This document shows, piece by piece, positions 1 to 49,053 of a DNA stretch of 64,000 nucleotides (position 1 is the first letter of the stretch; every line of letters starts with the position of its first letter). Source of the DNA: Nitrospirota bacterium (GTDB lineage Bacteria; Nitrospirota; Thermodesulfovibrionia; UBA6902). Below the pieces are notes generated by a model. That model was not told the origin of the DNA and made no database searches. It saw nothing but the letters and a program-made list of their open reading frames with translations. The DNA is taken from NCBI GenBank assembly GCA_016207885.1, contig JACQZE010000027.1:11944-75943 (forward strand), written 5' to 3'. A program made the translations under genes and the position numbers.

Positions 1-3000
1 CTGATAATCAATCCCCGTCCGCAATACAGGCATGGATAGATGCTGATGACAGCGGCACATACGAGCCGGACGAAAAATACGCCATGTCTGCAGTTAACGG
101 CTCTGACAGCACTTACAGTGACGGTAAGCTTTACAATAAGACACTTACCCTCTCTTATGTCGGCGACGGGGTCTACAATTACCGTTTTTACGCGAGTGAC
201 GGGAGCGCGGACGCAACAGGCAGCCCGGCGTCAAACAGCACTGTAACCGTACTCTCATCGGCAAACAATCCTCCTGTTCTTGAATGGATTGCGGCATCAT
301 GCCTGACAGATGGCGTAAAACCTGCGACAGGCCCGAACAACGGGGATTTTGAATTTATAATTAAATACACTGATCCGGACAATCAGTGTCCTCCAGCTGC
401 GAGCGATATCCAGGCGTGGGTGGATATAAATGACAACAGTTCTTATGAGCCGGGCGAGAAGTATAATCTGACAGAGGCCGATGTTTCAGACACCATATGC
501 TCTGACGGCAAGCTCTATAACGTAACACGTACGCTTTCACTTGCAGGCGACAATGTGTTGAATTACCGGTTCTATGCTACCGATGGGACTGATACGGCTA
601 TCGGTGACCCGATATCAAACAGCGCTGTTACGGTTGTTGACGCGCTTAAGGTCAGAACATCAGGCGGCACAGGCTGGTACAGTTCCATACAATCGGCCAT
701 AGATGCTATTGACGGCGCCCATACGGTGCTGGTCTATGAAGGGACGTACAACGAGAATCTTATCTTCAACGGGGCGCTTGACGGCTCCACCACGGTCCGG
801 TCGGTCTGCGGCGCTGACAGCACAATTATCAGCTCCACAGGGAATGTTGTTCTTACCCAGAATAACACCGGCAATGTGATTGACGGATTCAGTATTACCG
901 GCGGGACGATCGGTTTATATATAAATGCGGCAACTGCTACTGTCACAAACAGCAAGATATACGGAAACATAAACAGTGCAGCCGCAGGCGGCGGTGTCTA
1001 TGTCACTAATGCGGCATCAACTCTTACCATATCTAATTCTGAGATTTATTCTAATTCTGCCGCGAGCGGCGGCGGTATCTTTTATAACAGCGGGACAAAT
1101 CATGTGATCAGCAATTCAATTATCCGGGACAACACCGCAACCGGAAGCGGCGGCGGCATTTATCCGCAGAATGCTACATTGACCATAACCAACTCAACGG
1201 TCAGGGATAACAGCGCTGTAAGTCATGGCGGAGGGTTCTACAATAATGCTTCAAGCGTTGACTTCTCCAAGTGTAAGATCACCGGCAATACATCATCTGC
1301 TCTGGGCGGAGCTATGTATCTGGCGAATGCCTCAGCATCAGCGGATCTCGAAAACTGTATTGTAACAAGTAATCAGGGGACTCAGGGCGGCATGATCTAC
1401 ACTAATGGCGGCACGGCAAACATCATTAACTCTACCGTTGCAGCCAATCAGGCAACTACCGGCAGCGGCGGCGCTTTCCGCACATCAACGACAAGCGCCA
1501 TAACAGTAAGAAACAGCATACTCTGGAACAATATGGCTGCTACCGACGGACACCTCGCCTACTTCAACGGCGGCACATTAAATATAAATGATTCCGTTAT
1601 CGCAAGCGGCGGAGACGGTGTCTATACTGATGCTCCTTATATGGAAGGCACAATGACGCTGAATATCAGCGGTTATACGTCTGAACATGATCCTTTATTT
1701 GCGGATGCGTCAAACGGTGATTACCATGTTCAGGCTTCTTCGGACGCCATAGACAATGCCAATGCGACGTATGCTCCTGCTGATGACATTGACGGCGAGA
1801 GCAGGCCCCAGGGCAGCGCTGACGACATTGGCGCTGATGAATATACTTCTGACTGGAGCGCTCCGGTGCTGTCGTGGACAGGCGAGACGAATTACGCAAG
1901 TGACGGGGTAAATCCGAATAACGCGGCAAGCGGGAGCAGTTTTGAATTCCGGGTCAATTATACTGACGCAGACAATGAAGCTCCGTCAGCGATACAGGTA
2001 TGGGTAGATGAAGACGACAGCGGCACATATGAGTCAGATGAAAAATACAATATGACGGCAGTTGGCATTGATAATATATACAATGACGGTAAGCTGTATA
2101 CAAAGACACTTACACTCAGTCATGCCGGAGACGATGCCTTTAATTATCGTTTCTACGCATCTGACGGTGCGGCAGACGCAACAGGTTCTCCGACGTCAAA
2201 CGGCGTGGTTTCGGTAACAAATAATTATCCTGTATTGTCATGGACCGGCGAGGCTGATTACGCAAGTGACGGCGTGGATCCGAACATTAATGTGACCAGC
2301 GGCAGTTACGAGTTCAGGATCGATTATACCGACGAGGAAAATACAGCTCCTTCATTTATGGAAGTATGGGTGGATGAAGACGACAGCGGCACATATGAGC
2401 CCGGTGAAAAATACGTAATGACCGCAACTGACGGCGGAGATATTGATTACACTGACGGCAAGCGTTATGCGAAAACCTTGTCAATCAGTTACACGGGAGA
2501 CGGCATACTCAATTACCGTTTCTATGCCTCAGACGGGACTGATGACGCAACCGGCGCTCCTGCGTCCAATAGCACTCTCACTGTCGCAAACGTCCCGCTG
2601 CTTTCATGGACCGGCGAGGCAAATTATATAAGCGACGGCGTAAATCCGAACAGCGCTGTAAGCGGCAGCAGCTTTGAATTCCGTGTGAGTTACACTGACG
2701 CGGAAAATGACGCGCCTACGTCAATCCAAGCATGGGTGGACGAGGACGATAGCGGCACATATACGGCAGGTGAAAAATATGACATGACCGCTGTGGATGG
2801 CGGAGATACAGATTACACCGACGGCAAACTCTATACAAAGACATTGCCAATAACCAAGGCCGGAGATAATACGTTGAATTACAGGTTCTACGCGGCTGAC
2901 GGATCAGGAGAGGCTGCGGGCGATCCAACATCAAATAACACTTTAACTGTTACCAATAATATCCCCGCGCTTTCATGGACAGGGGAAACTAATTATGTGA

Positions 3001-5078
3001 CAGACGGAGTTGATCCGAACAGCGGAGGAAACGGCGCTGATTATATCTTCAGGGCAAAATACACCGATGCTGATGATGAAGCTCCAGGCCCGATTGAGGT
3101 ATGGGTTGATGAAGACGACAGCGGCACATATACAGCAGGTGAAAAATATTCAATGACGGTTTCCGGCGGGAACGGCGATTATACTGACGGTGAAGTATAT
3201 ACAAAGACGCTCGCGCTCTCTTACGCCGGAGACGGCGTTCTCAATTACAGGTTCTACGCCTCAGACGGGACAGACGCGGCAACAGGCGATCCGGTCTCTG
3301 ATAATACAGTTACAGTGTCCTTATCAGCTAACAGCGCGCCTGCTCTTGAATGGTATGCCGGGTCATGCCGGACTGAGGGAGTGAGGCCGTCCACAGGGGC
3401 AGGCGGCGCGGACTTTGAGTTCTGGGTTGAGTACACGGACGGTGAAAACGATTGTCCGCCGACCGCAAACGACATACAGGTCTGGATAGATGAGAATGAT
3501 AATACTTCATATGACGCTGGTGAGAAATATGATCTTACAGAGGATGATGCCGGTGATACGAACTGCGCGGACGGCAAGATATATAAAGTGACACGGGCGA
3601 TATCATTTGCAGGAGACGGATCTCTTAATCACAGATTTTATGCCTCTGACGGGACAGACCCTGCAACAGGCACGCCGACTTCTGACAGCACAGTAAACGT
3701 TGTGAATACGGCCTATAAAGTCAGGCCGTCAGGCGGCACAGGATGGTACAGCACGATAGCGAATGCCCTTACAGCTTCTCCTGCTTCAAGCACGGTACTG
3801 GTTTACCCGAATGCAGATTTTACGGCAGCCACCTATGCCGGCGGCCTCTCCAATATTAATAAGACAAACCGTACTCTTCAGTCTGTCTGCGGCGCGGATC
3901 TGACGGTCATTTCCGGCGGAGGCACTGTTTATAACCTCCAGGGCAATGACGGCGCGGTCATTGACGGGTTCACAATAACCGGCGGGACTACATACGGCAT
4001 TTACTCAAACAGCGATTCATTGACCGTCAAAAACAGCAAGATACATACGAATCCTACCGGCATACATCTGAACAATGGCTGTAATCCGGCAACTATACAG
4101 AACACATCCATTTACAGCAATACATCCTATGGCATAAATTCGCCAAGTGCTCTCAACCTCGTCAGCGTTACAAACAGCAATATATACAACAACGGCGGCG
4201 GCATCACCAACGGCCCGGGCATTAATCTGAATGGCGGTGCAGGAACACATATTATTACCAACGTATCGTTAACAGGCAATACGACTACCGGAAACGGCGG
4301 CGCGATTTACTGCGTCAACTGTGTTGTAACAATTGATAACAGCACCATAAATGACAACACAGCAGGCTCAGGCGGCGCACTCTACTTCCTGAATCCCAGC
4401 GTTAATGCAACCATTACTGATACCTTTATTCAGGGAAATGAAGCGACAGGCACGCTCGGCGGTGCGATCTACATGGGCAATGGCGCTGAGAGTCTGACAA
4501 ACGTCATGTTAACAGGCAACAAGGCCAACACTAACGGCGGCGCCATATATATTAATGGCGGGACGTCCAATTGTCTGTTCTGTACCCTTAGCGGCAACTA
4601 TGCCGGAGGTTACGGCGGCGCTCTTTATCAAAACAGCTCCACGCAGACTAATATCTGGAATAGTATCGTCTATAACAACGACGCTCTCAATGGGGGCAAC
4701 TATAAACAGATTTTTGCGACCAGCCCCAGGTACACATATGTTGATGTCTATAACACATTGATCGATCAGATACCGGGCGCTAATATCAGCGGCCCGCCTG
4801 ATCAGAGATCCAGCTATGAGAATATGGGCGGCAACCTGCATGAAGGAACAGACACTAATGAATTGCCGTATTTTGTGAACGGCCTGAATCCGGCTTCCGC
4901 ACCTGCCACCGGCGGCGACTACCGCATCTGCGGAGGAGTTGACGATCCGGCAGGCTGCACCGCCGCCTCATATTGCATAGACGCAGGCAGTGGAAGTTAT
5001 ACGTCTGACCATGACATCTACGGCAGCTCAAGGCCTCTTGGAGCAGGATATGACATGGGAGCGCATGAGAAAGAGTAA
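1..5078 (+). CDS. Giant secreted repeat protein, 5'-truncated at the window edge; two right-handed parallel beta-helix (pectin-lyase-fold) modules plus tandem ~120-aa repeat domains
   Basis: The reading frame is open from nt 3, so the listed ORF 84..5078 is only the C-terminal 1664 aa. Translation of nt 3-83 (…APSAIQAWIDADDSGTYEPDEKY) matches the internal repeat consensus. There are at least 8 copies of a ~120-aa unit (SWTGExNYxSDGVxPN…FEFRxxYTDxxNxAPSxIQVWVDEDDSGTYExGEKYxMT…DGKxYTKTL…NYRFYASDGxDxATGxP), and they are also near-identical at the DNA level. Two regions have NSxIxxN / GGGIY parallel beta-helix repeats, each ending in a DIDGxxRP…DIGAxEY-type motif. The protein ends …GAGYDMGAHEKE with no C-terminal TM segment. 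Confidence 0.8.
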   Translation, partial: DNQSPSAIQAWIDADDSGTYEPDEKYAMSAVNGSDSTYSDGKLYNKTLTLSYVGDGVYNYRFYASDGSADATGSPASNSTVTVLSSANNPPVLEWIAASCLTDGVKPATGPNNGDFEFIIKYTDPDNQCPPAASDIQAWVDINDNSSYEPGEKYNLTEADVSDTICSDGKLYNVTRTLSLAGDNVLNYRFYATDGTDTAIGDPISNSAVTVVDALKVRTSGGTGWYSSIQSAIDAIDGAHTVLVYEGTYNENLIFNGALDGSTTVRSVCGADSTIISSTGNVVLTQNNTGNVIDGFSITGGTIGLYINAATATVTNSKIYGNINSAAAGGGVYVTNAASTLTISNSEIYSNSAASGGGIFYNSGTNHVISNSIIRDNTATGSGGGIYPQNATLTITNSTVRDNSAVSHGGGFYNNASSVDFSKCKITGNTSSALGGAMYLANASASADLENCIVTSNQGTQGGMIYTNGGTANIINSTVAANQATTGSGGAFRTSTTSAITVRNSILWNNMAATDGHLAYFNGGTLNINDSVIASGGDGVYTDAPYMEGTMTLNISGYTSEHDPLFADASNGDYHVQASSDAIDNANATYAPADDIDGESRPQGSADDIGADEYTSDWSAPVLSWTGETNYASDGVNPNNAASGSSFEFRVNYTDADNEAPSAIQVWVDEDDSGTYESDEKYNMTAVGIDNIYNDGKLYTKTLTLSHAGDDAFNYRFYASDGAADATGSPTSNGVVSVTNNYPVLSWTGEADYASDGVDPNINVTSGSYEFRIDYTDEENTAPSFMEVWVDEDDSGTYEPGEKYVMTATDGGDIDYTDGKRYAKTLSISYTGDGILNYRFYASDGTDDATGAPASNSTLTVANVPLLSWTGEANYISDGVNPNSAVSGSSFEFRVSYTDAENDAPTSIQAWVDEDDSGTYTAGEKYDMTAVDGGDTDYTDGKLYTKTLPITKAGDNTLNYRFYAADGSGEAAGDPTSNNTLTVTNNIPALSWTGETNYVTDGVDPNSGGNGADYIFRAKYTDADDEAPGPIEVWVDEDDSGTYTAGEKYSMTVSGGNGDYTDGEVYTKTLALSYAGDGVLNYRFYASDGTDAATGDPVSDNTVTVSLSANSAPALEWYAGSCRTEGVRPSTGAGGADFEFWVEYTDGENDCPPTANDIQVWIDENDNTSYDAGEKYDLTEDDAGDTNCADGKIYKVTRAISFAGDGSLNHRFYASDGTDPATGTPTSDSTVNVVNTAYKVRPSGGTGWYSTIANALTASPASSTVLVYPNADFTAATYAGGLSNINKTNRTLQSVCGADLTVISGGGTVYNLQGNDGAVIDGFTITGGTTYGIYSNSDSLTVKNSKIHTNPTGIHLNNGCNPATIQNTSIYSNTSYGINSPSALNLVSVTNSNIYNNGGGITNGPGINLNGGAGTHIITNVSLTGNTTTGNGGAIYCVNCVVTIDNSTINDNTAGSGGALYFLNPSVNATITDTFIQGNEATGTLGGAIYMGNGAESLTNVMLTGNKANTNGGAIYINGGTSNCLFCTLSGNYAGGYGGALYQNSSTQTNIWNSIVYNNDALNGGNYKQIFATSPRYTYVDVYNTLIDQIPGANISGPPDQRSSYENMGGNLHEGTDTNELPYFVNGLNPASAPATGGDYRICGGVDDPAGCTAASYCIDAGSGSYTSDHDIYGSSRPLGAGYDMGAHEKE

Positions 5079-5306
5079 GATGTCAGTCTGCTGATTACAC
5101 AATAGAATAATTTAAGAATAAGTGAAGTTACCTTCCAGTGTCAGCACTGTTATTGCTACGCATTTTAACGTCCCGGTTAACTTTATAATTTTCCTGGTAA
5201 GCGATTTCCCTCATTAAATTGGGTCATATCAAATAGCTTTAATTGGCTAAGGCAATTACCCCCAGATAATCAGGTAATCACCTGATATGGTTTTTACCAT
5301 TATTTC

Positions 5307-5315
5307 TGCTATAAT
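5307..5315 (+). promoter_or_regulatory. Candidate extended -10 promoter element (TGcTATAAT) upstream of the multiheme cytochrome gene
   Basis: The exact TGnTATAAT motif tgcTATAAT lies at 5307-5315 in an AT-rich intergenic region, 124 nt upstream of the ATG at 5439. No good -35 is present, which fits an extended -10 promoter. Confidence 0.25.
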
Positions 5316-5408
5316 GTTGTAATTATTTTTATTATTATAACTTATTGTAATCTAAGGGAAAAGTGTATAAAAACACTCTTGAGTTTTGCAAATATGATGT
5401 ATACATTT

Positions 5409-5424
5409 TGGCAGAGTATTTGCT
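5409..5424 (+). promoter_or_regulatory. Candidate sigma-54 (-24/-12) promoter for the multiheme cytochrome gene
   Basis: The sequence tGGcag-agtat-tTGCt (5409-5424) fits TGGCAC-N5-TTGCW at all but one position. The predicted transcription start is about 5435-5437, only a few nt before the ATG at 5439, and no Shine-Dalgarno is visible, so the transcript would be near-leaderless. A sigma-54 activator gene is present in this window at 47067. Confidence 0.35.
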
Positions 5425-5438
5425 TGTAACATTATAAT

Positions 5439-8400
5439 ATGCGTAATTACAATAAGATAAAGCTCACCGTTATCGCATCAGGGTTACTACTGATGATTGC
5501 CATAACCGCTTATGCTCTTGATTATCCTCATTCTCCTGCGAATTATTATGATTGTACAACCTGTCATGATTTTTACAGCACTAATCCATATCTCATGACT
5601 GACTGGACAGGTGATTATGTTATGCAGGATGATGATGACACACCGGTAAACCATTTATGCCGGAGCTGCCATTACGGCGGCGGGCCTGCAGCAGCACATA
5701 ATGTTCACTCATATCTTGGAGTTGGATATGCAACATCTGCCTCCAGTCCTTATGGGGGGTGGCAGGTGCAATGTTCGACCTGTCACAACCCTCATTATCA
5801 GGAGCAGTTCAGCAAGTACCGGACAACAGCGGATCAGTACTGGGTAGTGAAGCTGCTTGTTGATACAGTGACGGTATCTGCCACATCCTCGACACTAAAG
5901 GCACAGGGAACGCCGAACTGGACAAATGACGCATATAAGGACATGAAGGTTTTCCCCAACATAAACGCGAAGTATCCTGTTGCGTATAAAATAACCGGAA
6001 ACACGTCAGACACATTGACAATAAAAGGCCAGGTTACAGGGGCTTCAAGCGGCAATACGTTTGCAATTATATACGGCAGGCTTATTCGCGGCCAGATATC
6101 TCTTGGCAGGATAATAAATCCTTTGAACGCAAAGAGCGGATTTAAGGCTGTCAAGTTCTTCAGAGACTCAGACAATAATTCCTTCTCGGACGGCAACGGT
6201 GTTTATGACGGAGTCTGCGAAGTATGCCACACAGAGACACAGCACTTTCAGAATGACGGAAGCTCCCCCAATCAGAATCATACAAATATAGGAGCGGTTG
6301 CGGGAACCGACTGTACCATGGCCTGTCATACGGCCGAAGCCGGGTTCAGGCCTTCATGTAATGTCTGCCACGGCTATCCGCCTGTTGTCAATACTGCAAC
6401 CGGTGCGCCGGACGGTTTGGCAAATAACCCGGCTGTCACCGGGTCAATCACCGCGGGCGCGCATAATAAACACGTAAACATAAAATCATTTTCATGCAAG
6501 GTCTGCCACAATGGAAGTGCCGGCAGCGGCTCGACACATGTTAATAATAATGTAACGATAGGATTTTCACTTTTTGACGGCGCATATCCAGGAGGTTCAT
6601 ATGATGGCCAGACAACAGTGGATTATGACAGCAGCTCTGTAAATACGTCGGTATCGAATTCCGGCAGTAAGACCTGCAGCAATATCTACTGTCATGGCAG
6701 GCTTCCTGATGGAACAATTTGGGGCGGAGGGGCCGGCACAACTCCGCAATGGGACGGTTCGGCAGCCTGCGCCTCCTGTCACGACACCGGCGGCTCCCAG
6801 AGCGCGCTAAGCGGCAAACACCGCAAACATACTGACGAATCCACGTATGCTTTTGCATGTGAAAAATGTCATTACGAGACTGCGTCTGGCAGCTCATCAA
6901 TAAGGAATGAGGCTTACCACGCCAACAATACAAAAGACCTTGTTTTTGCAAAGGGCGGTTCATTTGACAGCGGGATTAAATCGTGCACGAGCACATATTG
7001 TCACAGCAACGCAGGTGGAGGACCGCCAAATGTATCTGTTAAATGGACTGACGCCGCAAGCATGCAATGCGACTCATGCCATAACGGCAGGACGGGAGTA
7101 GAGACGCTTGAGATGATCTCTAACGGGCATGCGCGCCTTGTCAGCAGTCAATGGGTGAGACGATTTCCGTGTTATTACTGCCATGACAATACAGTTGACA
7201 CTTCAGACAATTTAAAAGACTACAGCAGGCATCTTAACGAAACCAAAGATATCGCCATCGCTTCAAACTGGAACATCACCGGAAAGCCTGCTCCAAGCTA
7301 CAATGCGGACACAAAGGTCTGCGACAATATTTACTGCCATAGCGACGGCACAACTGTTGATCCGCAGGTCAGGCCTTTCCCCTGGACTCAGGGGCATGCC
7401 AAATGCAACACATGTCACGGGCATGAACAGGGCACCTGCTCCACCTGCCACAATGACGGCAGAACCGGCTGGCCTGCGGGGCAGGAATGGAAATCCGCAA
7501 TGCCGATGTATACAAACACCGGGGCAGGCACTGAGAATGCTAACACGCACAAACGGCATCTGCTGACGGATTTTAATTGTGATAACTGCCATGCCAATAC
7601 TATCGCAAACGGCACCTGTACAACATGCCACAACGGCGGTACTCCCCAAGGCAGCATGGATGAGGTCAATCACATCAATCCGGCTTATCACGTAAATAAG
7701 GTCAAGGATGTCGTCTTCAAAAACGGAGGCACCTACAACCAGGTTAACAAGACATGTTCCAACACAGCCTGCCATACCGGTTCTGATCCACAGTGGGGCG
7801 ATTCGGTTAATAATCTTGTGCTTTGTTTTACTTGCCACGGCGTTTCAGGTGCGGACGTGGACGATTTCACCAAGTTCAACAGCACACGCGCCAAGATCAA
7901 TCTGACCGAATGGGAAACCACCGGACATGGACGGCCGTCATCCGCAGGCAATTACACTTCAGGAAATCCCCCGGCAAATTTCCCCGGGAATCCATGCTGG
8001 TACTGTCATGACAATAATGTGCTTCACAATGATTCTTCAAACCCGTTTCGGCTGAAGCAGCACCAGCAGTTTGCAAGCCGTTTTGAAAAAGAATGCATTT
8101 ACTGCCATATGGAAGGACAGGACGCTGAATGCCTGAACTGTCATAACGCGTCTAATTCCCTCGCCCCGCAGCTTTCGACCATTACAGATCCTCCTTTTTC
8201 ACAGGATCATTCGGAGTATACAAACGGGCAGACGTCTTGTGTCGCTGTTTGTCATGCAACCGACGAACAGAGGCATAAGACTGGAGCAGGCCTGTGGACT
8301 GCCGAACAGAAGGTGGACATAAAAAACCAGTACGTGATGATGGGCGTATGTCTTAAGTGCCATGATGACGACAGTAATGGGAAATGCAACCAGTGTCATA

Positions 8401-10724
8401 CAGGAGAGCAATATCAGCTCGGTTATGATCCGGGAACTGGCTTTATAAAGGCAAATGTTTCAAAGGCAACGTCAATACATTTCGGTTACAAACATTATGC
8501 CGCCTACCAGAATAACGGAGTGTGGAAAGGAGGCAAGTTCTGCTGGGACTGTCACGACCCGCACGGAGACAGCAATATATACATGATACAGAGCAAGGTT
8601 GCCACAGAGACGGACGGCACTTTCGGAATTCCCGTCACAAGGCGTGACGTCTCGTTCACAAGAAAACAGAGCGGCCTTGATTATGCAAAAACGTCTGCTC
8701 CGTACAACGGTATTTGCAATGTATGTCATTCAGAGACAGGGCAGCATTACCGCTTTGATTATGGAGACGGACATAATGCAGGCAGGATCTGTACGACGTG
8801 CCATGAACACAGGTTCACTGATAGCCATGCGTCAGGCAAAGCATGCAATACCTGTCATCTGAATAAACCGGTTCCAAGGCACACGGCTTTCGGCCTGCCA
8901 AGAGATTGCACAAAATGCCATAACGGTACTATCAGCGGCCGCATGGATATTATGGGGCAATTCAGGGCGAATTCGCATCATGTGCAGGGTGATAAAGTTA
9001 CTAACAAACATTGCTACGCCTGTCATTGGGAGGCTACGGAGCTTGGGCTTATAAACATGGATTATCATTCTGGCTATAATTATAAAACACATGAACGTGC
9101 TTCCGGCAGAGAGGTGAACCTCGTAATTTGGGGCTCTGGACAGAGGCCCACAACATACACTGAAGGAACTACTGCGGCAACATTCACGGCAAACAAGGTT
9201 GGTACGGTTGACGAGAGGGCGGAGGTGTCAAAGGTAACACAGGCTTGTCTGGGCTGTCACAGTGATCAGAACAAGACAATACAGCCCTTTAATATTGTGG
9301 ATCCTGACAACGGCGACTGCAAGACACCGATACAATATGCGTGGGACAGGCAGAGCATTGCTGCAAGATATTCTCAGACAGGCACAGCTACATGGGGCAA
9401 ATACACATCTATGGCAAATGCCGCAAAGAAAAACATAACCAAGGCATATTCCGCACACGGCAATGCGGTCAATAACCAGGGCGGATGGGATGCGGCAACA
9501 GGTCTGGACGATACGATCCCGAATACAAGGAATGGAAGCCAAAATGTCCAATGTTTTGACTGTCACAGTTCTCACGGCTCAAAGGTCTCGGGAGTTACAT
9601 CAAGTTACAAGACATTCAACGGCACTAATAACGGGGCAAACCTGAAAGAGACGCAGGCAGGCAAGGGCGGCTACAGCATGACCTATAAAGCTCAGGCAAA
9701 TACCTCGGGTGTGAACCCGTACAATGCAGGAGCAGGACAATGCTTTGACTGTCATGAGACGCAGACATCAGGCGCAAAACCCTGGGGCTACGGATCAACC
9801 TTCGGGGCAACCGCGCCTATTCTTGGATATAAGGATACGCCACGTTTCGGACAGGGCACAAAAGGTTCCACTGCAAGATATACATACAGAGCGAACAAGA
9901 CGACCATTGTAGGCGGACACTTTAAGGCGTCTTCTGAATTAACCAGCCCGGCGATGGGCACGATCAACGGGTTATGCACTCCATGCCATGACCCACACGG
10001 AGTAAGCCCGACCATAGGAACCAACCAGCAATACGCATTGCCCATGCTTAAAGGCACATGGCTTACATCGCCATACAGGGAAGACGTTACGCCGATGGAC
10101 AAGAACGGATATAGCGGCAAGAGCGGTTTCTATAATTACTACAATTCATGGAGCGGGTCTTATCCAAGGCCGTATGGTCAGCAATCCGATCCGCAGCCAC
10201 TCGGTTCATGGAATACCGACAGGAATACTTTCAATACTGTTGACTTGAGCAATAAGGGAAATGTCCCTGACAGTACATATGGCAGGATAAGCGAAGATGA
10301 AAGCAAGTTCGCCGGGCTGTGCCTGATATGCCATTCGAAATCCAATCTGACCGACGGTATTAACAAGAATACCGCGTTCAGGACCAAAGACAGGATACAC
10401 GAATCTGTCAAGGGATGGGGATCCAACGGCGAGCATTCGTATCCATGCTCAAAGTGTCACCAGCCGCACAGCTCCGGCCTGCCGAGACTGCTTCAGACGA
10501 ACTGTCTCGATTATAAGCACAGGGGCAGGGTAGCCTCCGGAGGGCTTCCTTATGCATACGATGTTTCATGGTCTTACGAAAACGAGTATGGCAGATTCCC
10601 TTACGGCTGGTGGGATGACGGATATAGCACATACAGTACAGCCATATGTCATGGCGCTGCAACCGCCAACGGTTCAGCCGGGTGGCCTGACAACCAGAAG
10701 TGGAACAATGTAACGCCATGGTGA
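5439..10724 (+). CDS. Giant multiheme c-type cytochrome (about 38 heme-binding motifs), secreted or outer-surface
   Basis: 1761 aa with an N-terminal signal/anchor (MRNYNKIKLTVIASGLLLMIAITAYA). I count about 32 CxxCH motifs (CTTCH, CRSCH, CSTCH, CEVCH, CNVCH, CKVCH, CASCH, CEKCH, CDSCH, CYYCH, CNTCH, CDNCH, CTTCH, CFTCH, CWYCH, CIYCH, CLNCH, CLKCH, CNQCH, CWDCH, CNVCH, CTTCH, CNTCH, CTKCH, CYACH, CLGCH, CFDCH x2, CTPCH, CLICH, CSKCH and others). There are two CxxxCH motifs (CTMACH, CVAVCH) and four CxxxxCH motifs, each followed about 25-30 aa later by a CxxCH (CSNIYCH…CASCH; CTSTYCH…CDSCH; CDNIYCH…CNTCH; CSNTACH…CFTCH). This is the Geobacter-type GSu_C4xC__C2xCH domain pattern. Confidence 0.92.
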   Translation: MRNYNKIKLTVIASGLLLMIAITAYALDYPHSPANYYDCTTCHDFYSTNPYLMTDWTGDYVMQDDDDTPVNHLCRSCHYGGGPAAAHNVHSYLGVGYATSASSPYGGWQVQCSTCHNPHYQEQFSKYRTTADQYWVVKLLVDTVTVSATSSTLKAQGTPNWTNDAYKDMKVFPNINAKYPVAYKITGNTSDTLTIKGQVTGASSGNTFAIIYGRLIRGQISLGRIINPLNAKSGFKAVKFFRDSDNNSFSDGNGVYDGVCEVCHTETQHFQNDGSSPNQNHTNIGAVAGTDCTMACHTAEAGFRPSCNVCHGYPPVVNTATGAPDGLANNPAVTGSITAGAHNKHVNIKSFSCKVCHNGSAGSGSTHVNNNVTIGFSLFDGAYPGGSYDGQTTVDYDSSSVNTSVSNSGSKTCSNIYCHGRLPDGTIWGGGAGTTPQWDGSAACASCHDTGGSQSALSGKHRKHTDESTYAFACEKCHYETASGSSSIRNEAYHANNTKDLVFAKGGSFDSGIKSCTSTYCHSNAGGGPPNVSVKWTDAASMQCDSCHNGRTGVETLEMISNGHARLVSSQWVRRFPCYYCHDNTVDTSDNLKDYSRHLNETKDIAIASNWNITGKPAPSYNADTKVCDNIYCHSDGTTVDPQVRPFPWTQGHAKCNTCHGHEQGTCSTCHNDGRTGWPAGQEWKSAMPMYTNTGAGTENANTHKRHLLTDFNCDNCHANTIANGTCTTCHNGGTPQGSMDEVNHINPAYHVNKVKDVVFKNGGTYNQVNKTCSNTACHTGSDPQWGDSVNNLVLCFTCHGVSGADVDDFTKFNSTRAKINLTEWETTGHGRPSSAGNYTSGNPPANFPGNPCWYCHDNNVLHNDSSNPFRLKQHQQFASRFEKECIYCHMEGQDAECLNCHNASNSLAPQLSTITDPPFSQDHSEYTNGQTSCVAVCHATDEQRHKTGAGLWTAEQKVDIKNQYVMMGVCLKCHDDDSNGKCNQCHTGEQYQLGYDPGTGFIKANVSKATSIHFGYKHYAAYQNNGVWKGGKFCWDCHDPHGDSNIYMIQSKVATETDGTFGIPVTRRDVSFTRKQSGLDYAKTSAPYNGICNVCHSETGQHYRFDYGDGHNAGRICTTCHEHRFTDSHASGKACNTCHLNKPVPRHTAFGLPRDCTKCHNGTISGRMDIMGQFRANSHHVQGDKVTNKHCYACHWEATELGLINMDYHSGYNYKTHERASGREVNLVIWGSGQRPTTYTEGTTAATFTANKVGTVDERAEVSKVTQACLGCHSDQNKTIQPFNIVDPDNGDCKTPIQYAWDRQSIAARYSQTGTATWGKYTSMANAAKKNITKAYSAHGNAVNNQGGWDAATGLDDTIPNTRNGSQNVQCFDCHSSHGSKVSGVTSSYKTFNGTNNGANLKETQAGKGGYSMTYKAQANTSGVNPYNAGAGQCFDCHETQTSGAKPWGYGSTFGATAPILGYKDTPRFGQGTKGSTARYTYRANKTTIVGGHFKASSELTSPAMGTINGLCTPCHDPHGVSPTIGTNQQYALPMLKGTWLTSPYREDVTPMDKNGYSGKSGFYNYYNSWSGSYPRPYGQQSDPQPLGSWNTDRNTFNTVDLSNKGNVPDSTYGRISEDESKFAGLCLICHSKSNLTDGINKNTAFRTKDRIHESVKGWGSNGEHSYPCSKCHQPHSSGLPRLLQTNCLDYKHRGRVASGGLPYAYDVSWSYENEYGRFPYGWWDDGYSTYSTAICHGAATANGSAGWPDNQKWNNVTPW

Positions 10725-10792: not shown

Positions 10793-13700
10793 ATGAAATA
10801 CCGTCATTCCTGCAGTCTGTTGAGCGGGAATCCAGTAGCATCCTATCTTTTCACTTTAATTGTATTTGTGATCATTTCAACGCTTGTTCTGCCATATTAT
10901 GCCCACGCTGCAGGCGGAGACGTTATCTGGCAGTACGGGGATACGCCGCAGGCTGGGAAGCAGGAAGCCGGGGCGATGATAGTGGACTCAGCAGGCAACA
11001 CTATCATAACAGGGGCGTCGAATCAGTCGGGAAATGATGATTATTACACGGTAATGATCAAGGCTGACGGCACCGGAGTATTATGGAGCAAAGTATATGA
11101 CAAGGCATCCGGAGACGACCATGCTACTGCAATAACGGTTGATTCGGATAGCAACGTAATAGTGACAGGATATGTATGGAACGGGTCAAACTATGATTAT
11201 CACACTATCAAATACAAAGGCAGTGACGGCACAGTTTTGTGGCAGCACACGTTTAACGCGGCAGTAAACGGTAACGATTATGCGACATCGGTAACGGTGG
11301 ACAGCCTGAACAATGTCTATGTCGGCGGTAATTCTCAGGGAAGCAACGGGGCAGATAACTGCATGATAGTCAAATATGGCTCAGGCGGGCCCAATCCCGA
11401 CAGCACGCCGATATGGCAGAAGAGCTATAACGGTGCGGCAAACGGTCACGACCGAATCTCATCAATAGTTGCAGGGACAAACGGCATAGCAGTAACCGGA
11501 ACCTCCCAGAACAGTACGCTGGACTTTGACATACTGACGGTCAAATACGGATTTGACAGCACATTAACTTGGGAGAAGAGGAAATCCGTATCAGGAGATG
11601 ACAGGGGCGTTTCGGTGAGTATGGACAGTTTGGGCAATGTGATCATGACCGGTTATGTATACAATGGGGCGAACAAAGACATATACACGGCAAAATACAA
11701 TTCCTCCAATGGGAATATACTGTGGGAGACGACCTACAGCGGTGGGTATGATGAAGAGCCTGAGGACCTGTGGGTTGATTCTTCAGGCAATGCATACGTA
11801 GCGGGCAATACATTTACCATAGGAGGGACAAACGATATTTACACAGCAGGATATGCTTCAGGCGACGGCACACAGCTATGGGATGAAATTTTCAATTCCG
11901 ACAACAGCAACAGCGATAAGGCAGTATGCATATCAGGAGACAATGCCGGGAGCATATTTGTGACAGGTGACACTTATAATGAAGTCTCAGCCAATTATGA
12001 TTATCAGACACTAAAGTACACGGCCGGCGGCGGAACTCTCCTGTGGCAGAAGAGCTTTAATGGCACAGCTGACAAGAGCGACCGTGTAGCTGGCGTAGGG
12101 TTGACAGCGGCAGGAGCATCCATAGTCGGCGGCTGGACAGACAAGTGGACGAGCGGTGCTACGGACTATGACTATTACGCAATCAAATACGCCCCCGGGC
12201 TTATAAACCCGCCTACCGAAATGGCAGTGACAACTGTATCGAATTCAGAGATTGCCCTTGCATGGACTGACAACTCATCAAACGAGGACGGGTTCAAGAT
12301 AGAGCGGAAGATAGGAGAGTTGGGGACTTATTCACAGATAGCCACAGTAGGGGCAAGCGTTACGACATACAATAATACAGCCCTGACTGCAGATACGAAA
12401 TACTACTACAGGGTTAAGGCATACAATGCGGCCAATGGGGACTCACAGTACAGCAACGAAGATTACGCGGTAACAACGGTTTATTCGTACACCTATCCTG
12501 TCTGGAGTTACATATACAACGGGGCAGACAACGGCGACGATTTCATCAATGCAACGGCAGCCGGTTCTGACAACCACCCGGCAGTAACAGGATACAGTTA
12601 TTCAACTGCGGGGCAATTTGATTATTACACCGTAAAGCTCAACAGGCAGGACAATAGCCTGATATGGGATGTAAGGTATGACAGCGACCAGAACGATCTT
12701 GACGTGGCAAAAACGATTGCAGTGGATAACAATAACAATGTTATCGTATCGGGTTATTCATATCTTTACAGCGCGCAGTCTGGCGAAAACACCAATGATA
12801 TCTACACCATCAAATATCCGTCAACCGGCAGTCCTGAAGACTGGGCTGATCAATACAACGGCCCTGCCGGTGATGATGACCGATCAAGTGTGGTGGACGT
12901 ATCAACCGACGGGAATAATAATTATGCGGTAGTCGGGTACGGCAAGAACGCATCATCGAATGATGACATATATGTAATCAAATATCTTAACAACGGAACA
13001 CGCGCATGGGCGGCAGCCCCTTATGACGGAGGCGGCAATGACTATCCTTCTGCTGTTTCATTTGACTCAGCAGGCAATATATTCATGACCGGTTACAGAT
13101 TCAACGGTGCCAACTATGACTACTTTGCCGCGAAATACAACGGCAGCACTGGAACTATAATATGGTCGGATATATACAACGGGGCCGGGAATGGTAATGA
13201 CTTCACCCGTTCATTAGCGGTCGACTCATCAGGCAACTTCTATGTCACGGGTATTGCGGTAACTGGTTCCGGCAATGAAGATTTTGTAACCATCAAATAC
13301 AATGGAGCAACCGGTGAGCAAATGTGGGTACGCACAATGAACGGGCCTGCAAACGGTGTTGACGAGGCGATAAGCGTAAAGGTTGATCCTGTGAACGGTC
13401 AGGCAGCGGTAGCAGGAACAGTTCTTACCGCCACTGGCAATAACGACTTCCATATAATCAGGTACGACGCGGATGGCAACGTGTTCTGGGAGAGAACGGT
13501 TGACAGGCCGGCAAGCGATGATTTCGTGACAGCAGCGGCAATGGATCGTTCAGGCAATTTACATGTAACGGGCTATTCAAACAACGGGGCCAACACTGAC
13601 ATCCTCTCTGTTTGGTACAACACTGAAGGCGCATTCAACGGAGGCACGACATACAACGGAGCATCAAACGGAAACGATGAAGCGTCATCAATCGCAGTAA

Positions 13701-20340: not shown

Positions 20341-21203
20341 TTAAAAAAGCCGCGTTACTTTTTGTTCTGATTCTAATGTTATCAGTAACTGTAATCCATG
20401 CGGAAATTGAGACAGGCTGGATATCGGGCCGGATAATGATCAAGGACAACGGGCCATTAGCTGATGCCATGATAGTTTTCTTTGATACTCAATCAGGGCC
20501 TCCTCCATCTATCGATAAATACTTCAGGGTTCCGGACGGAATTGACGAAGTTGATGCTGAAGGCGGGTTTCGCGTATCGCTTCCTGTCGGCAAGTATTAC
20601 ATCGGAGCGATTAAAAGGGTATCTGCCGAAAAAGCCGGTCCGCCCCTGGATGGTGATTATTTCTTTATCAGTGAAGATAAAGATGGCAAACCTATACAGC
20701 ACATTATTGAGAACGGTAAGGAAGTGAAGCTTGGCACTCTCACAGATGCTGTCCCTTTTAAACGTTCGCTCCCTGAAGGAGTCACAGGGATATCAGGCAC
20801 TATCCTCGATATGGCAGATATCCCTGTTGAAGGGGCAATATTATTTGCATACTATACTGAGACACTAACTGGGATTCCGACCTTTACTTCCTATAAAACC
20901 GGAAAGGATGGCAAATATATTATCACAGTAGACACTGGAGGAGTTTATTACTTAAGGGTAAGAGACGTGTACGGAGGCGGTCCGCCTGTCCCAGGGGCTA
21001 TCATGGGAGGTTACGGGGAAGAAAAGCCTACAGCGATAGTCGCTAAAACAGGCGAGATATCTGGCGGCGTAGATATAAAAGTGATAAGGCATCTTGAAAT
21101 GGGGCCCAAACATCAGCCGGATGCAACGAACGAGAATTTCATGGAAGAGCAAATGAGAAAAATTAAACAGGAAATGGAGAATACGATTGAAAAGAAGCAA
21201 TAG
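20337..21203 (+). CDS. Secreted protein with two carboxypeptidase-regulatory-like domains (paralog of the N-terminus of the 18298 gene)
   Basis: The start overlaps the upstream stop as ATGA. Signal peptide (MIKKAALLFVLILMLSVTVIHA). CarbopepD_reg-type units are present (GRIMIKDNGPLADAMIVFF…GFRVSLPVGKYYIGA; ISGTILDMADIPVEGAILFAYY…TGKDGKYIITVDTGGVYYLRV). Confidence 0.75.
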   Translation: MIKKAALLFVLILMLSVTVIHAEIETGWISGRIMIKDNGPLADAMIVFFDTQSGPPPSIDKYFRVPDGIDEVDAEGGFRVSLPVGKYYIGAIKRVSAEKAGPPLDGDYFFISEDKDGKPIQHIIENGKEVKLGTLTDAVPFKRSLPEGVTGISGTILDMADIPVEGAILFAYYTETLTGIPTFTSYKTGKDGKYIITVDTGGVYYLRVRDVYGGGPPVPGAIMGGYGEEKPTAIVAKTGEISGGVDIKVIRHLEMGPKHQPDATNENFMEEQMRKIKQEMENTIEKKQ

Positions 21204-21256
21204 CAGATCATCAAGCCTGCTATTATACTGCGTCACGGCGTGGAAGGAGGTATAGC

Positions 21257-21319
21257 GTGAAAAAGATCAAATATGTTCCGCCCGGAATAGTCGGGAGCGC
21301 AGCTGTTCACCCTTGCTGA
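21257..21319 (+). CDS. Conserved 20-aa small ORF (peptide B: (M/V)KKIKYVPPGIVGSAAVHPC), paralog of sORF A
   Basis: A GGAGG Shine-Dalgarno (tggAAGGAGGtatagc) lies 6 nt before the GTG at 21257, and the stop is TGA at 21317-21319. Of 20 codons, 16 encode the same amino acid as sORF A; there are 9 synonymous codon changes and 4 amino-acid replacements (I>V, A>P, K>G, V>A). The sORF sits in the same position, upstream of a beta-helix gene, as sORF A. Confidence 0.5.
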   Translation: MKKIKYVPPGIVGSAAVHPC

Positions 21320-21366
21320 AATGAATGAGATATGAATGACCGGGATTTGTTGTCTTAAAATAACTT

Positions 21367-23874: not shown

Positions 23875-23919
23875 CTATGACAGTTTGACATCCAGAAGCA
23901 GCTGAATTTATACAGCATT

Positions 23920-25202: not shown

Positions 25203-25203
25203 C

Positions 25204-26121: not shown

Positions 26122-26139
26122 CAGAAAAGGGGAAAATAG

Positions 26140-27039: not shown

Positions 27040-27109
27040 AATAGAAGCATGAGATCGTGACCTGTGTATGCCGTTTTTTACTATCGGCAATCGCAGGTGA
27101 AAAGACGAA

Positions 27110-30664: not shown

Positions 30665-30734
30665 TTCAGGTGTAGCTTTTGCAGAGAGGGCTTATATTTT
30701 TGAATTGCTGTAAATAACATTTCCGGAGGGAATT

Positions 30735-36724: not shown

Positions 36725-36732
36725 AAGAAGTT

Positions 36733-48479: not shown

Positions 48480-48665
48480 TAATGCTTGTAGACATTTTTT
48501 GCTCCTGATACATTATTTGCGATTAAAAGAATCTCTTTGTTTTCAATAAGATAACCCTCAATATTACAAATAAACCATTATCTGTATCAACTGCTGTCTC
48601 TTTCCGCGCTGTTAGATAACTATTCTAACTCATTGATATTTCAACATAAATCAATAATATTATGC

Positions 48666-49016: not shown

Positions 49017-49053
49017 TTTAAAAATATAATTATTTATTTCAGGAGGATTGATC

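Follow-up and report, generated by a model that had tools for sequence, protein, structure and literature searches.

A giant multiheme cytochrome gene with 38 heme-binding motifs and its conserved partner gene in a Nitrospirota genome

Analysis of a 64,000-nucleotide stretch of a Nitrospirota contig (the window) showed that the plus-strand ORF at positions 5439-10724 is a real and intact gene for a giant, predicted exported multiheme c-type cytochrome, whose sequence points to heme occupancy and bis-His ligation. Most likely the protein is a long conduit for electrons, placed at the outer membrane or outside it, that works together with a giant non-heme partner, a reading to which we give a probability of about 60%. 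A role in extracellular electron transfer is plausible, and we infer that the protein lies beyond the outer membrane, that it associates physically with the partner, and in which direction and with which substrate electrons flow. The cytochrome joins a known, coherent family spanning two phyla and adds no new principle. With giant multiheme cytochromes (MHCs), subsurface bacteria are presumed to respire minerals or to trade electrons with partner cells. To our knowledge, structural work on these has stopped at about 12 hemes per protein, and the members of this 35-heme family are all unstudied. The family is now defined by a conserved C-terminal module, 31-56 hemes and its presence in two phyla, and a near-invariable partner gene and a modular exchange of heads were revealed. 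The locus was also tied to a gene block that lies between cytochromes with extracellular electron-transfer phenotypes in the tractable Geobacter metallireducens, and true orthologues have cultured carriers (Geobacter sp. OR-1, G. hydrogenophilus and Geotalea toluenoxydans). Together these make the function of the "35-heme" class testable. The gene and the parts of its product were located as follows.

5439-10724, plus strand: giant multiheme c-type cytochrome gene; 1761 aa, ATG start, single unbroken ORF, 38 heme-binding motifs
5439-5516, plus strand: predicted Sec-type signal peptide, aa 1-26, MRNYNKIKLTVIASGLLLMIAITAYA followed by LD (cleavage site read by eye)
5517-6218, plus strand: swappable N-terminal head, aa 27 to about 260 (about 230-260 aa), with hemes 1-3, a beta domain and the junction ...YDGVCEVCH
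6339-7868, plus strand: TIGR01904 repeat region, aa 301-810, 15 heme motifs (PF09698, TIGR01904)
6675-6782, 6984-7082, 7320-7418 and 7755-7838, plus strand: four CxxxxCH...CxxCH doublets, each with 37.7-53.9 bits to TIGR01904
7869-8978, plus strand: heme-dense middle region, aa 811-1180, 11 motifs
8979-10724, plus strand: family-defining C-terminal module, aa 1181-1761, 7 CxxCH, about 83 aa per heme

The recount of heme-binding motifs gave 32 CxxCH, 2 CxxxCH (CTMACH at aa 292 and CVAVCH at aa 934) and 4 CxxxxCH (CSNIYCH at aa 413, CTSTYCH at aa 516, CDNIYCH at aa 628 and CSNTACH at aa 773), and the length of 1761 aa and the totals given by an earlier, sequence-only reading of this DNA were reproduced exactly. 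The CxxCH partners of the four CxxxxCH motifs were at aa 444, 544, 656 and 796, with start-to-start spacings of 31, 28, 28 and 23 aa; the 25-30 aa stated earlier was thus roughly right, with a found range of 23-31 aa. The chance expectation was a mean of 0.53 motifs with a maximum of 5 (2000 residue shuffles of the cytochrome sequence). All 38 motifs were kept in at least 19 of 20 full-length orthologues (44-72% identity), and the eight doublet motifs (413/444, 516/544, 628/656 and 773/796) in all 20. Besides the motifs, 43 more His were conserved in the orthologues, which makes bis-His ligation possible for every heme. The mature cytochrome of approximately 1735 aa has a computed mass of approximately 189 kDa without heme and 212 kDa with 38 hemes. 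The placing of the protein among the largest MHCs was overstated, since the family itself reaches 56 motifs, MHCs of Desulfuromonadia reach 87 (PMC11492766) and those in MAGs of groundwater Nitrospirae, from the same habitat and phylum, reach 49 CxxCH (Danczak et al. 2019, PMC6730927). The latter study only counted motifs and did not describe a family, a partner gene, an exchange of heads or an accessory block.

Profile searches showed that NCBIfam TIGR01904 matched the cytochrome with 100.8 bits in four stretches (cut-off 27). When scanned singly, the four doublet segments scored 49.0, 53.9, 37.7 and 42.2 bits, each above the cut-off, so the HMM check suggested with the sequence-only reading confirmed four true doublets. 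Pfam PF09698 scored 55.9-66.6 bits (cut-off 21.7), the 66.6 bits being obtained in four stretches on the TIGR01904 repeat region alone. The strongest single family match was Pfam Cytochrome_C7 with 86.7 bits, while PF22113 (MtrC/MtrF II/IV) matched at aa 32-126 with 58.5 bits (cut-off 30) and more weakly elsewhere. MccA, OTR, HAO and NrfA were absent among the Pfam, NCBIfam and PDB matches. The PDB search by single sequence gave nothing below E=0.19, and by family profile the best match was the c7-like subunit of ACIII (E=5e-4), with no nanowire subunit among the matches, so that no related solved structure could be detected. Self-BLAST showed no internal repeats at E<1e-3, which is read as the modules being too diverged. 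AlphaFold2 models had a mean pLDDT of 42.0 for aa 1-810 (35 aligned sequences) and 39.1 for aa 811-1761 (32 aligned sequences), only the signal helix and a small beta domain being confident. A linear heme chain in the cytochrome is an assumption and is not seen in the predicted models.

Export, as expected of a c-type cytochrome, was supported at the level of the sequence by the predicted signal peptide and by the hydrophobic 19-mer at aa 9-27, which was the only strongly hydrophobic segment in the protein. AlphaFold2 placed a confident helix at aa 2-27, and the paralogues P0048 and P0051 have equivalent N-termini. No lipobox cysteine was present in the signal peptide, and no outer-membrane translocation or sorting signal was found in the cytochrome sequence. 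P0048 and P0051 are two further giant heme proteins of the same contig that share the head of the cytochrome, at 67% and 73% identity, respectively. The nearest orthologues (L006 and L008), with 74-78% identity over the rest, carry an unrelated head, and most Geobacter members begin with a '..CYDCHGT..D.RP' head. The beta domain of the head (about 90-100 aa, aa ~130-228) matched no Pfam family, and its strands at aa 144-237 were the only fold modelled confidently apart from the signal helix. In addition, a repeat of the head unit, ...NGICNVCHSET..H...CTTCHEH, was found at aa 1069-1124 in the middle region.

The core of the family is the conserved C-terminal part of approximately 950 aa, and members were found in Nitrospirota and in many Geobacter and Desulfuromonadales genomes. 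Relatives are encoded at 276 loci in GTDB species representatives; among the best 80 of these, most span residues 1-951 of the C-terminal part or nearly so, with 48-85% identity. The C-terminal 951 aa were colinear end to end with Geobacter/Desulfuromonadales proteins at 49-63% identity, and the link to Geobacter-type cytochromes drawn earlier is therefore real. Named carriers were the MAGs JACRLN01 and JACRHD01 (NC_groundwater Nitrospirae), Geobacter sp. OR-1 (3 copies), G. hydrogenophilus DSM 13691 and Geotalea toluenoxydans, the identity over the colinear C-terminal 951 aa being 49-85% for this orthologous family. The module at aa 1181-1761 matched 209 representative clusters at E≤1e-30 and was found in all 85 related loci, with a variable number of hemes upstream. 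Members had 31-56 heme motifs with a median of 35 (73 complete loci), which fits the 'broad maximum at 35, solely predicted extracellular' reported for MHCs of Desulfuromonadia (PMC11492766).

Outside the C-terminal module the cytochrome has approximately 37 aa per heme. Within the module, Cys1689 (80 of 83 loci), His1694 (82 of 83) and Cys1737-His1738 (73 of 77) were conserved outside the canonical motifs, with a variable loop of 31-75 aa separating the conserved Cys/His sites, and ten non-motif His were conserved as well. Cys1689 is Gly in P0023 and in three loci. The halved heme density and the conserved unusual Cys and CH residues suggest that the module could be more than a wire. The module ends in WNNVTPW, which was considered as a sorting signal or an OMP beta-signal and rejected on inspection, as its hydrophobic residues do not alternate and as P0029 and P0019 carry it internally.

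The cytochrome gene was found among giant secreted adhesin-like proteins by Pfam, as the sequence-only reading had it, and the surrounding features were as follows.

1-5078, plus strand: C-terminal two-thirds of the 2550-aa beta-helix protein P0048 (Pfam Beta_helix; the first residues of the window match P0048 internally)
5079-5438, plus strand: AT-rich intergenic region upstream of the cytochrome gene
10793-18118, plus strand: partner gene for a giant secreted non-heme protein of about 2441 aa (Pfam, NCBIfam)
18298-24615, plus strand: four secreted accessory proteins, namely CarboxypepD_reg with beta-helix (680 aa), CarboxypepD_reg (288 aa), NosD-like beta-helix (835 aa) and CarboxypepD_reg (231 aa)
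24612-33239, plus strand: rest of the conserved accessory block, namely OpuAC-like (196 aa), ResB-like (305 aa), PhnD-like, TPR, YedE, ArsP-type permease (644 aa), cupin and the GeoRSP trio

The N-terminal part of P0048, which lies beyond the left edge of the window, contains the 13 heme motifs of that protein (aa 38-677). The partner protein has no heme motifs and comprises SBBP/delta-60 beta-propeller repeats, at least six fn3 domains, DUF2341 and an Ig-like domain. Its start is probably ATG 10793, with the Shine-Dalgarno-like GGAGTGAGGGAG upstream, and not the mechanically listed GTG 10700; its signal peptide ends in ...YYAHA, followed by AGG. No terminator was found between the cytochrome and partner genes in the window. 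A partner homologue was present in 81 of the 85 loci and lay directly downstream on the same strand in 80 of the 81, across two phyla, and the called genes in L001-L005 agreed with this placement. In the relatives P0029 and P0028 the C-terminal module is fused to LamG and fn3 domains. A Rosetta-stone argument from these fusions was rejected, as BLAST found no similarity between the partner and the LamG/fn3 extension at the C-terminus of P0029, the two having only domain types in common. The literature search found nothing relevant on DUF2341 with multiheme proteins.

The four secreted accessory proteins all have signal-peptide-like N-termini, and their genes recurred beside family members in 4-20 of the 85 loci, a count limited by the 10-kb flank. 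In the rest of the block, the OpuAC-like binding protein comes first, YedE is a selenium transporter and the GeoRSP trio (PqqD, radical SAM/SPASM and SPASM protein) comes last. The genes that separate Gmet_0558 from Gmet_0571 in G. metallireducens were orthologous to the 12-gene block, with identities of 24-70%, and the block genes were also found beside family members in L017, L036, L030, L020, L063, L062 and L075. For the GeoRSP genes (31054-33239), TIGR04302 PqqD scored 139.7 (cut-off 100), TIGR04303 radical SAM 568.9 (cut-off 400) and the TIGR04304 SPASM protein 211.3, under its cut-off of 300. Nothing relevant was found on GeoRSP in the literature, and a paper on the MccSep/ExtKL selenocytochrome proved unrelated to the cytochrome. 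The ResB-like protein (gene at 25204) matched Pfam ResB with 38.9 bits over model positions 154-221 of 486 only, with no stretch significant alone; it had no NCBIfam match, and CcsA (PF01578) was not found among the window ORFs scanned. Its homologues were present within 10 kb of family members in 5 of the 85 loci, a count again limited by the flank, and one with 48% identity was found in the interval from Gmet_0558 to Gmet_0571. G. metallireducens has true ResB (440 aa) and CcsA (278 aa) pairs as separate genes next to Gmet_0571. The role of dedicated maturation factor proposed for this gene was thus upheld in its linkage to TIGR01904 cytochromes (G. metallireducens and Geobacter MAGs) but not in its identity, as it is not a full ResB and the scanned window ORFs include no CcsA. 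The same role proposed for the TlpA-like gene (33331) was not supported, as neither the G. metallireducens block nor any of the 85 related loci has a homologue; this protein has a thioredoxin fold with ResA as best NCBIfam match (115.5 bits, under the cut-off of 170). No porin-cytochrome conduit, other heme protein or secretion-system gene was found among the ORFs scanned in the window. Finally, window ORFs with KdsA-type (DAHP_synth_1), SIS+CBS and HAD domains were read as KDO biosynthesis genes, which points to a diderm host.

Among known systems, Gmet_0571 (34 hemes, 1848 aa) and Gmet_0558 (27 hemes, OmcO-like) have the same doublet domain, giant size and signal peptide, and the 12-gene accessory block adjoins them as well. 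Fe(III) oxide reduction and DIET with G. sulfurreducens both depend on Gmet_0558, optimal DIET with Methanosarcina requires Gmet_0571, and TIGR01904 proteins of Geobacter are treated as outer-surface cytochromes (PMC10989804). However, both share only approximately 25% identity with the cytochrome, limited to the TIGR01904 repeat region, with no counterpart of the conserved C-terminal part of approximately 950 aa, and ResB and CcsA genes follow Gmet_0571 in place of a giant fn3/DUF2341 partner. Orthology with Gmet_0571 was therefore rejected, and the phenotypes of the two proteins serve as an analogy. A search with the N-terminal part of Gmet_0571 did not return Gmet_0571 itself, and the full gene was taken from L089.

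The Shewanella decahemes MtrC and OmcA have the same presumed role as a surface electron outlet and were matched at the domain level only, by PF22113 in the cytochrome head. The motif count of the cytochrome is almost four times their number of hemes; unlike them, the cytochrome has no lipobox and the window has no MtrAB-like porin or periplasmic partner, the DmsE/MtrA model TIGR03508 scored 20.3 bits (cut-off 192.2), and the PDB search gave no sequence match to them. The OmcS, OmcE and OmcZ nanowires serve the same goal, carrying electrons over tens of nanometres outside the cell, but are polymers of 4-8-heme subunits, whereas here a single polypeptide holds 38 motifs; the PDB search showed no sequence similarity to solved nanowire subunits. 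As at this locus, nanowire gene clusters are associated with beta-propeller proteins (10.1101/2025.10.22.684050).

The conduit reading would proceed as follows. The protein would be exported by Sec via a cleavable signal peptide and would carry 38 covalently bound hemes, possibly with a 39th. The swappable 3-heme head may act as a common docking and electron-entry module, reused on at least two other giant heme proteins, and would lead into a heme-dense 'wire' of approximately 900 aa with one heme per approximately 37 aa and the four TIGR01904 doublets, the chain ending in the conserved C-terminal module of approximately 580 aa with 7-8 hemes. The gene would be co-transcribed with that of the giant beta-propeller/fn3/DUF2341 surface protein, which may be a scaffold, anchor or contact protein, and the cell envelope would exchange respiratory electrons with insoluble minerals or with partner cells. 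A bolder view, which we regard as rather doubtful, is that the C-terminal module and the near-invariable partner define a distinct and undescribed two-protein cell-surface redox apparatus of Geobacterales and groundwater Nitrospirota, probably spread by horizontal transfer. Its interchangeable heme heads would connect different giant proteins to a single shared electron donor, Cys1689...Cys1737-His1738 might form a 39th, non-canonical heme site or a Cys-ligated one across the 31-75-residue loop, and the 12-gene block (NosD-like, ResB-like, ArsP-type permease, cupin, GeoRSP and YedE) would be dedicated to the maturation or assembly of TIGR01904 cytochromes.

The C-terminal module also raises the alternative that the protein is a terminal redox enzyme, in which this module of approximately 580 aa would be catalytic or substrate-binding (metal, metalloid, sulfur or selenium) and the upstream 31 hemes would feed it electrons. 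The module is the family core and is combined with variable upstream heme numbers, and its density of approximately 83 aa per heme, against 37 elsewhere, is in the range of octaheme enzymes. Its conserved Cys1689, His1694 and Cys1737-His1738 are reminiscent of atypical sites such as the CX15CH heme of MccA and Cys-ligated hemes, and the YedE selenium transporter, the PhnD-like binding protein and the ArsP-type permease are conserved neighbours. However, the module resembles no multiheme enzyme in Pfam, NCBIfam or the PDB, its ten conserved non-motif His could give all 7-8 hemes a bis-His ligation and thus offer no sign of an open coordination site, and Gly stands in place of Cys1689 in P0023 and three loci, which leaves an enzyme unlikely. 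A role in storing or relaying electrons inside the periplasm, comparable to that of the Geobacter poly-c7 dodecaheme cytochromes, would agree with the signal peptide without lipobox, the lack of a translocation or sorting signal in the cytochrome, the top match to Cytochrome_C7 and the lack of conduit or secretion genes among the window ORFs scanned. It is quite unlikely all the same, as the near-obligate 2441-aa beta-propeller/fn3/DUF2341 partner and the beta-helix and LamG giants nearby are typical of surface proteins. In addition, a 27-heme Geobacter MHC is predicted to be approximately 350 Angstrom long against a periplasm of approximately 170 Angstrom, so a 38-heme chain would be longer still, and the MHCs of about 35 hemes in Desulfuromonadia are all predicted extracellular (PMC11492766).

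The clustered giant secreted proteins, which carry beta-helix, fn3, LamG and beta-propeller modules and in two cases a fused heme head, and the relatives in which the cytochrome module is fused to LamG and fn3 domains would suit a mainly structural or adhesive matrix, a redox-active surface layer or sheath in which electron transfer to a substrate is secondary. This is improbable, since purifying selection on all 38 heme motifs and the 43 extra His indicates that electron transfer is the selected property, and the fusion argument is weak given that the P0029 extension has no similarity to the partner. Finally, the public record raised the question of the gene start. NCBI already holds the same protein as a "CxxxxCH/CxxCH domain-containing protein" of a Nitrospirae groundwater MAG, and its model for the identical sequence (P0001) has 1468 aa and begins at M294, thus lacking the signal peptide and five heme motifs. 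An annotation artefact or decaying gene, with the M294 model correct and the first 293 codons untranslated, would also agree with the lack of a clear Shine-Dalgarno upstream of ATG 5439, but is scarcely credible: the M294 start splits the CTMACH motif and leaves out the signal peptide required for a c-type cytochrome, aa 1-293 match the N-termini of P0048 and P0051 at 67-73% identity with signal peptides included, full-length orthologues span 100% of the ORF and the five heme motifs in aa 1-293 are kept in at least 19 of 20 of them. Overall, the extracellular conduit was preferred over these readings.

The NCBI models of other short relatives (P0004, P0005 and P0008) possibly also lack the signal peptide and the first heme motifs, and the truncated starts are flagged here as a systematic error in public annotations. 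The intergenic region at 5079-5438 had eight sigma-70-like matches (2.0 expected) and two terminator-like hairpins (5136-5149 and 5269-5286; 0.4 expected), all being consensus matches only, and is probably where the upstream gene terminates and where the cytochrome gene has a promoter of its own. The gene of the orthologue P0017 directly follows four further MHC genes, with 26, 16, 6 and 8 motifs, which lie upstream of it. A 657-aa gene without a Pfam match that had been considered as a porin upstream of P0017 was found to encode a 26-heme lipoprotein cytochrome instead.

A single unbroken ORF with an ATG start was found at 5439..10724 (+) in the window ORF listing, encoding a cytochrome of 1761 aa. 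A regular-expression recount produced 32 CxxCH, two CxxxCH (CTMACH at aa 292 and CVAVCH at aa 934) and four CxxxxCH motifs (CSNIYCH at aa 413, CTSTYCH at 516, CDNIYCH at 628 and CSNTACH at 773), and this total of 38 reproduced the approximate count and the motif classes claimed in the sequence-only reading. By chance, a mean of 0.53 and a maximum of 5 motifs would be expected (2000 residue shuffles). The protein has 86 His and 79 Cys, 76 of which were inside motifs. The HMM check of the claimed Geobacter-type doublets with TIGR01904 (NCBIfam, CxxxxCH/CxxCH domain c-type cytochrome, cut-off 27) showed a score of 100.8 bits over four separate stretches, and the doublet segments taken singly all scored above the cut-off with 49.0, 53.9, 37.7 and 42.2 bits. 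The gap between the CxxxxCH and the next CxxCH, claimed to be 25-30 aa, was 23-31 residues from start to start in the four doublets and roughly agreed. Pfam matches were found with Cytochrome_C7 (86.7 bits), MtrC/MtrF domain II/IV (58.5 bits, aa 32-126), GSu_C4xC__C2xCH (55.9 bits) and Cytochrom_c3_2 (53 bits). No sequence-related solved structure was found with the single protein or with the family profile, the top match being an ACIII c7-like subunit (E=5e-4).

The identical sequence is present in NCBI on a 96,877-bp contig, where the public model of the cytochrome (P0001) is only 1468 aa. This model opens with "MACHTAEAG..." at M294, midway in the CTMACH motif, and omits the signal peptide and five heme motifs. 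On comparison with its relatives, M294 cannot be right as the start, because the signal peptide required by a c-type cytochrome would be lost, two other proteins encoded on this contig share 67-73% identity with aa 1-293 over their own N-termini, including the signal peptides, full-length orthologues (P0002, P0003 and others) span 100% of the ORF, and each of the five motifs in aa 1-293 recurs in 19 or more of the 20 orthologues. The 1761-aa model of the sequence-only reading is therefore better than the public one. Three more NCBI-derived relatives were also short (P0004, 1455 aa; P0005, 1521 aa; P0008, 1407 aa). The sole strongly hydrophobic segment was aa 9-27, a confident helix in AF2, and the lipobox cysteine was absent from the predicted cleavage region ...ITAYA|LDYPH. 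The predicted mature protein was calculated as 1735 aa with 188.6 kDa without heme and approximately 212 kDa with 38 hemes. Promoter-like and terminator-like matches were found in the 360-bp region 5' of the gene.

Comparisons with related proteins divided the window cytochrome into four parts:
aa 1 to about 260 (window 5439-6218, + strand): head with signal peptide, hemes 1-3, a beta domain and the junction motif YDGVCEVCH
aa 301-810: TIGR01904 repeat region
aa 811-1180: heme-dense region
aa 1181-1761: C-terminal module with only seven CxxCH, one per 83 aa

The first three parts jointly have 31 motifs, one per approximately 37 aa. The head shared 73% identity with the head of P0051, a 1435-aa protein that has 16 heme motifs and a LamG-type body, and 67% with the head of P0048, which has 2550 aa, 13 heme motifs and a beta-helix body. 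Both are encoded on the same contig; by these identities, three different giant proteins of this genome use a single head type. The closest orthologues elsewhere, at loci L006 (78% identical from aa 229 onward) and L008 (74% from aa 259), bear a head unrelated to that of the window cytochrome, "..LLRRSPGDICEGCH.." (L006 7814-8300; L008 7796-8370), and a third type, "..CYDCHGT..D.RP..", opens most Geobacter members. The head comparisons therefore show exchange of heads as modules. The beta domain of the head (about 90-100 aa, aa ~130-228, window about 5826-6122) had no Pfam match and showed the pattern W-T-x-D-x-[WY] ... N-T-x-D-T-L-T-[IV] ... G-[DN]-x-[FY]-x-[IV]. AF2 modelled this domain alone of the cytochrome with some confidence, and the domain was an optional insertion in the orthologues P0007, P0011, P0015 and P0018-P0020, present once to several times and sometimes in tandem.

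A scan of one genome per GTDB species, with the alignment of aa 811-1761 as query, showed 276 loci encoding a relative. Most of the best 80 of these spanned all or nearly all 951 residues with 48-85% identity. The relatives formed one group of groundwater and deep-subsurface MAGs belonging to Nitrospirae and Thermodesulfovibrionia, and another of many Geobacter, Desulfuromonadales and Desulfobulbia genomes, including the cultured Geobacter sp. OR-1 (three copies), G. hydrogenophilus DSM 13691 and Geotalea toluenoxydans. For aa 1181-1761, 209 matches with E≤1e-30 were found among 1.84 billion cluster representatives; the module was usually at the C-terminus of proteins of 1400-2300 aa, sometimes with long non-heme extensions beyond it. 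The 73 complete ORFs of the related loci have 31-56 heme motifs with a median of 35. Multiheme cytochromes (MHCs) with up to 49 CxxCH were described earlier from groundwater Nitrospirae, and electron exchange with iron oxides was proposed for them (PMC6730927); up to 87 motifs per protein were found in a survey (PMC11492766). The window cytochrome had been placed among the largest multiheme cytochromes; however, 38 motifs are typical for the family and not a record.

In the alignment of 20 full-length orthologues (44-72% identity), each of the 38 motifs was retained in at least 19. Outside the motifs, 43 His were retained in at least 17 of the 20, which would be enough for bis-His ligation of all hemes, and three additional Cys were conserved (1294, 1689 and 1737). 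Two of these were in a near-invariant non-canonical stretch at window 10503-10724 (aa 1689-1761) with the arrangement TNC(1689)L..H(1694).G, a loop, xC(1737)H(1738) and W..N.WNxVTPW, the last of these elements being at the C-terminus of the protein. Across 85 related loci, Cys1689 was found in 80/83, His1694 in 82/83, Cys1737-His1738 in 73/77 and the terminal Trp residues of WNNVTPW in 78/78. The spacer from Cys1689 to xCH varied from 31 to 75 residues, and Gly replaced Cys1689 in the database protein P0023 and three loci. Cys1689 and Cys1737-His1738 could form a 39th non-canonical heme site (split or single-Cys) or provide a Cys ligand.

The gene directly downstream encodes a giant partner protein of about 2441 aa with no heme motifs. 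The mechanical listing started its ORF at GTG 10700, overlapping the 3' end of the cytochrome gene, while the most likely start is ATG 10793, with the Shine-Dalgarno-like GGAGTGAGGGAG before it and the codons of a signal peptide (end ...YYAHA|AGG) after it. At least six fn3 domains were found in the partner, together with SBBP and delta-60 beta-propeller repeats, DUF2341 and one Ig-like domain. No terminator-like site was found between the two genes. A partner homologue was present in 81 of the 85 related loci with long, colinear alignments (e.g., q22-1506 at 43% identity), and in 80 of these 81 it was directly downstream on the same strand; the called gene models in L001-L005 agreed. A literature search found no paper mentioning this pairing.

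Giant adhesin-like proteins had been claimed to flank the cytochrome. The upstream ORF 84-5078 was merely the C-terminal two-thirds of P0048, whose 13-heme N-terminal part (first ~680 aa) is left of the window, so this adhesin-like protein is itself a cytochrome fusion. The three giants of the contig (window cytochrome, P0048 and P0051) have 67 heme motifs together. The genes 3' of the partner were as follows:
CarboxypepD_reg and beta-helix proteins, then a NosD-like beta-helix protein (835 aa)
OpuAC-like binding protein, 305-aa ResB-like protein, PhnD-like binding protein, TPR protein and YedE
further members: 644-aa ArsP-type permease, cupin and the GeoRSP trio (PqqD TIGR04302, 139.7 against a cut-off of 100; rSAM/SPASM TIGR04303, 568.9 against 400; SPASM protein TIGR04304, 211, under the cut-off of 300)

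Twelve of these genes, from NosD-like to YedE (window 21367-33239), were orthologous with 24-70% identity to a contiguous block of G. metallireducens GS-15 (L086 6189-18354; CP000148.1, about 601-613 kb). The block contains NosD-like, CarboxypepD_reg, OpuAC-like SBP, ResB-like, ArsP-type permease, cupin, GeoRSP PqqD/rSAM/SPASM, PhnD-like, TPR and YedE genes, with the cupin best conserved (58-70% identity). It is flanked by TIGR01904 cytochromes of 1036 aa and 1848 aa, which were equated with Gmet_0558 and Gmet_0571 from the order and size of the genes rather than from locus tags. Gmet_0558 (27 hemes) is required for Fe(III) oxide reduction and for electron exchange between species (DIET) with G. 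sulfurreducens, and Gmet_0571 (34 hemes) for optimal DIET with Methanosarcina (PMC10989804). Both were ruled out as orthologues of the window cytochrome, with approximately 25% identity in the repeats only and no C-terminal module. Block genes were also beside family members in Geobacter MAGs (loci L017, L036, L030, L020, L063, L062 and L075) in varying orientation, and the linkage therefore survives rearrangement. In addition, four MHC genes with 26 (lipoprotein), 16, 6 and 8 motifs and a monoheme gene were directly 5' of the orthologue P0017 (L002 3196-9290); the 26-heme protein had no precomputed Pfam hit.

Overall, the best-supported reading of the window cytochrome is a putative secreted heme wire made of a single polypeptide, through which electrons would pass between the envelope and a solid or partner outside the cell; the head would serve for docking and electron entry as a shared module, and the partner protein as a scaffold or contact protein. 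The main rival explanation is a catalytic role for the C-terminal module, for which its lower heme density compared to the rest and its unusual conserved Cys and CH leave room. The heme-wire reading is favoured by the selection on every heme motif and on sufficient His for bis-His ligation, by the export signal, by a partner and neighbours of surface type, and by the clustering of further MHCs in orthologous loci. Further support comes from the behaviour of the related Geobacter cytochromes and from a size that would exceed the periplasm width, by analogy with a 27-heme relative of 350 Angstrom predicted length (PMC11492766). The window ORFs that were scanned included no secretion or porin genes. 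The earlier interpretation of the locus as one for extracellular electron transfer or mineral/partner contact was supported in part, with the observation itself confirmed. The cytochrome is already annotated in public databases as a member of a known cytochrome kind; what the analysis adds is a corrected gene model, a definition of the family and its conserved partner, the exchange of heads, and a link to the gene block of G. metallireducens.

Two neighbouring genes had been suggested as dedicated maturation factors. For the ResB-like gene, the linkage to TIGR01904 cytochromes held while its identity as a ResB synthase was rejected, as the Pfam match of the 305-aa protein covered only model positions 154-221 of 486. 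This protein had no NCBIfam hit, and the window ORFs that were scanned included no CcsA. Full ResB (440 aa) and CcsA (278 aa) pairs in G. metallireducens are separate genes right after Gmet_0571, and an earlier proposal was that these pairs serve cytochromes encoded nearby (PMC2700814). The suggestion was not upheld for the TlpA gene at 33331, which encodes a ResA-like thioredoxin-fold protein (115.5 bits against a cut-off of 170) and had no counterpart in any related locus or in the G. metallireducens block.

ORFs with KdsA-type (DAHP_synth_1), SIS+CBS and HAD domains were found at window 35897-40174, along with lipid-synthesis genes (CDP-alcohol phosphatidyltransferase and PlsY-type) and QueC. 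The former are read as putative KDO biosynthesis genes, so that the organism would have an outer membrane, and by gene content this region would indicate a diderm organism with LPS. For a 1070-aa protein encoded at 56588-59800 (-), the only match was to UDPGP (nucleotidyltransferase), weak and limited to aa 838-968, with the rest unannotated. Finally, the genes at 42997-50562, downstream of the cytochrome locus, encode a GAF/multi-PAS histidine kinase of 1357 aa that has a single CxxCH, a response regulator of the sigma-54-dependent type and an RpoD-like sigma-70 factor.
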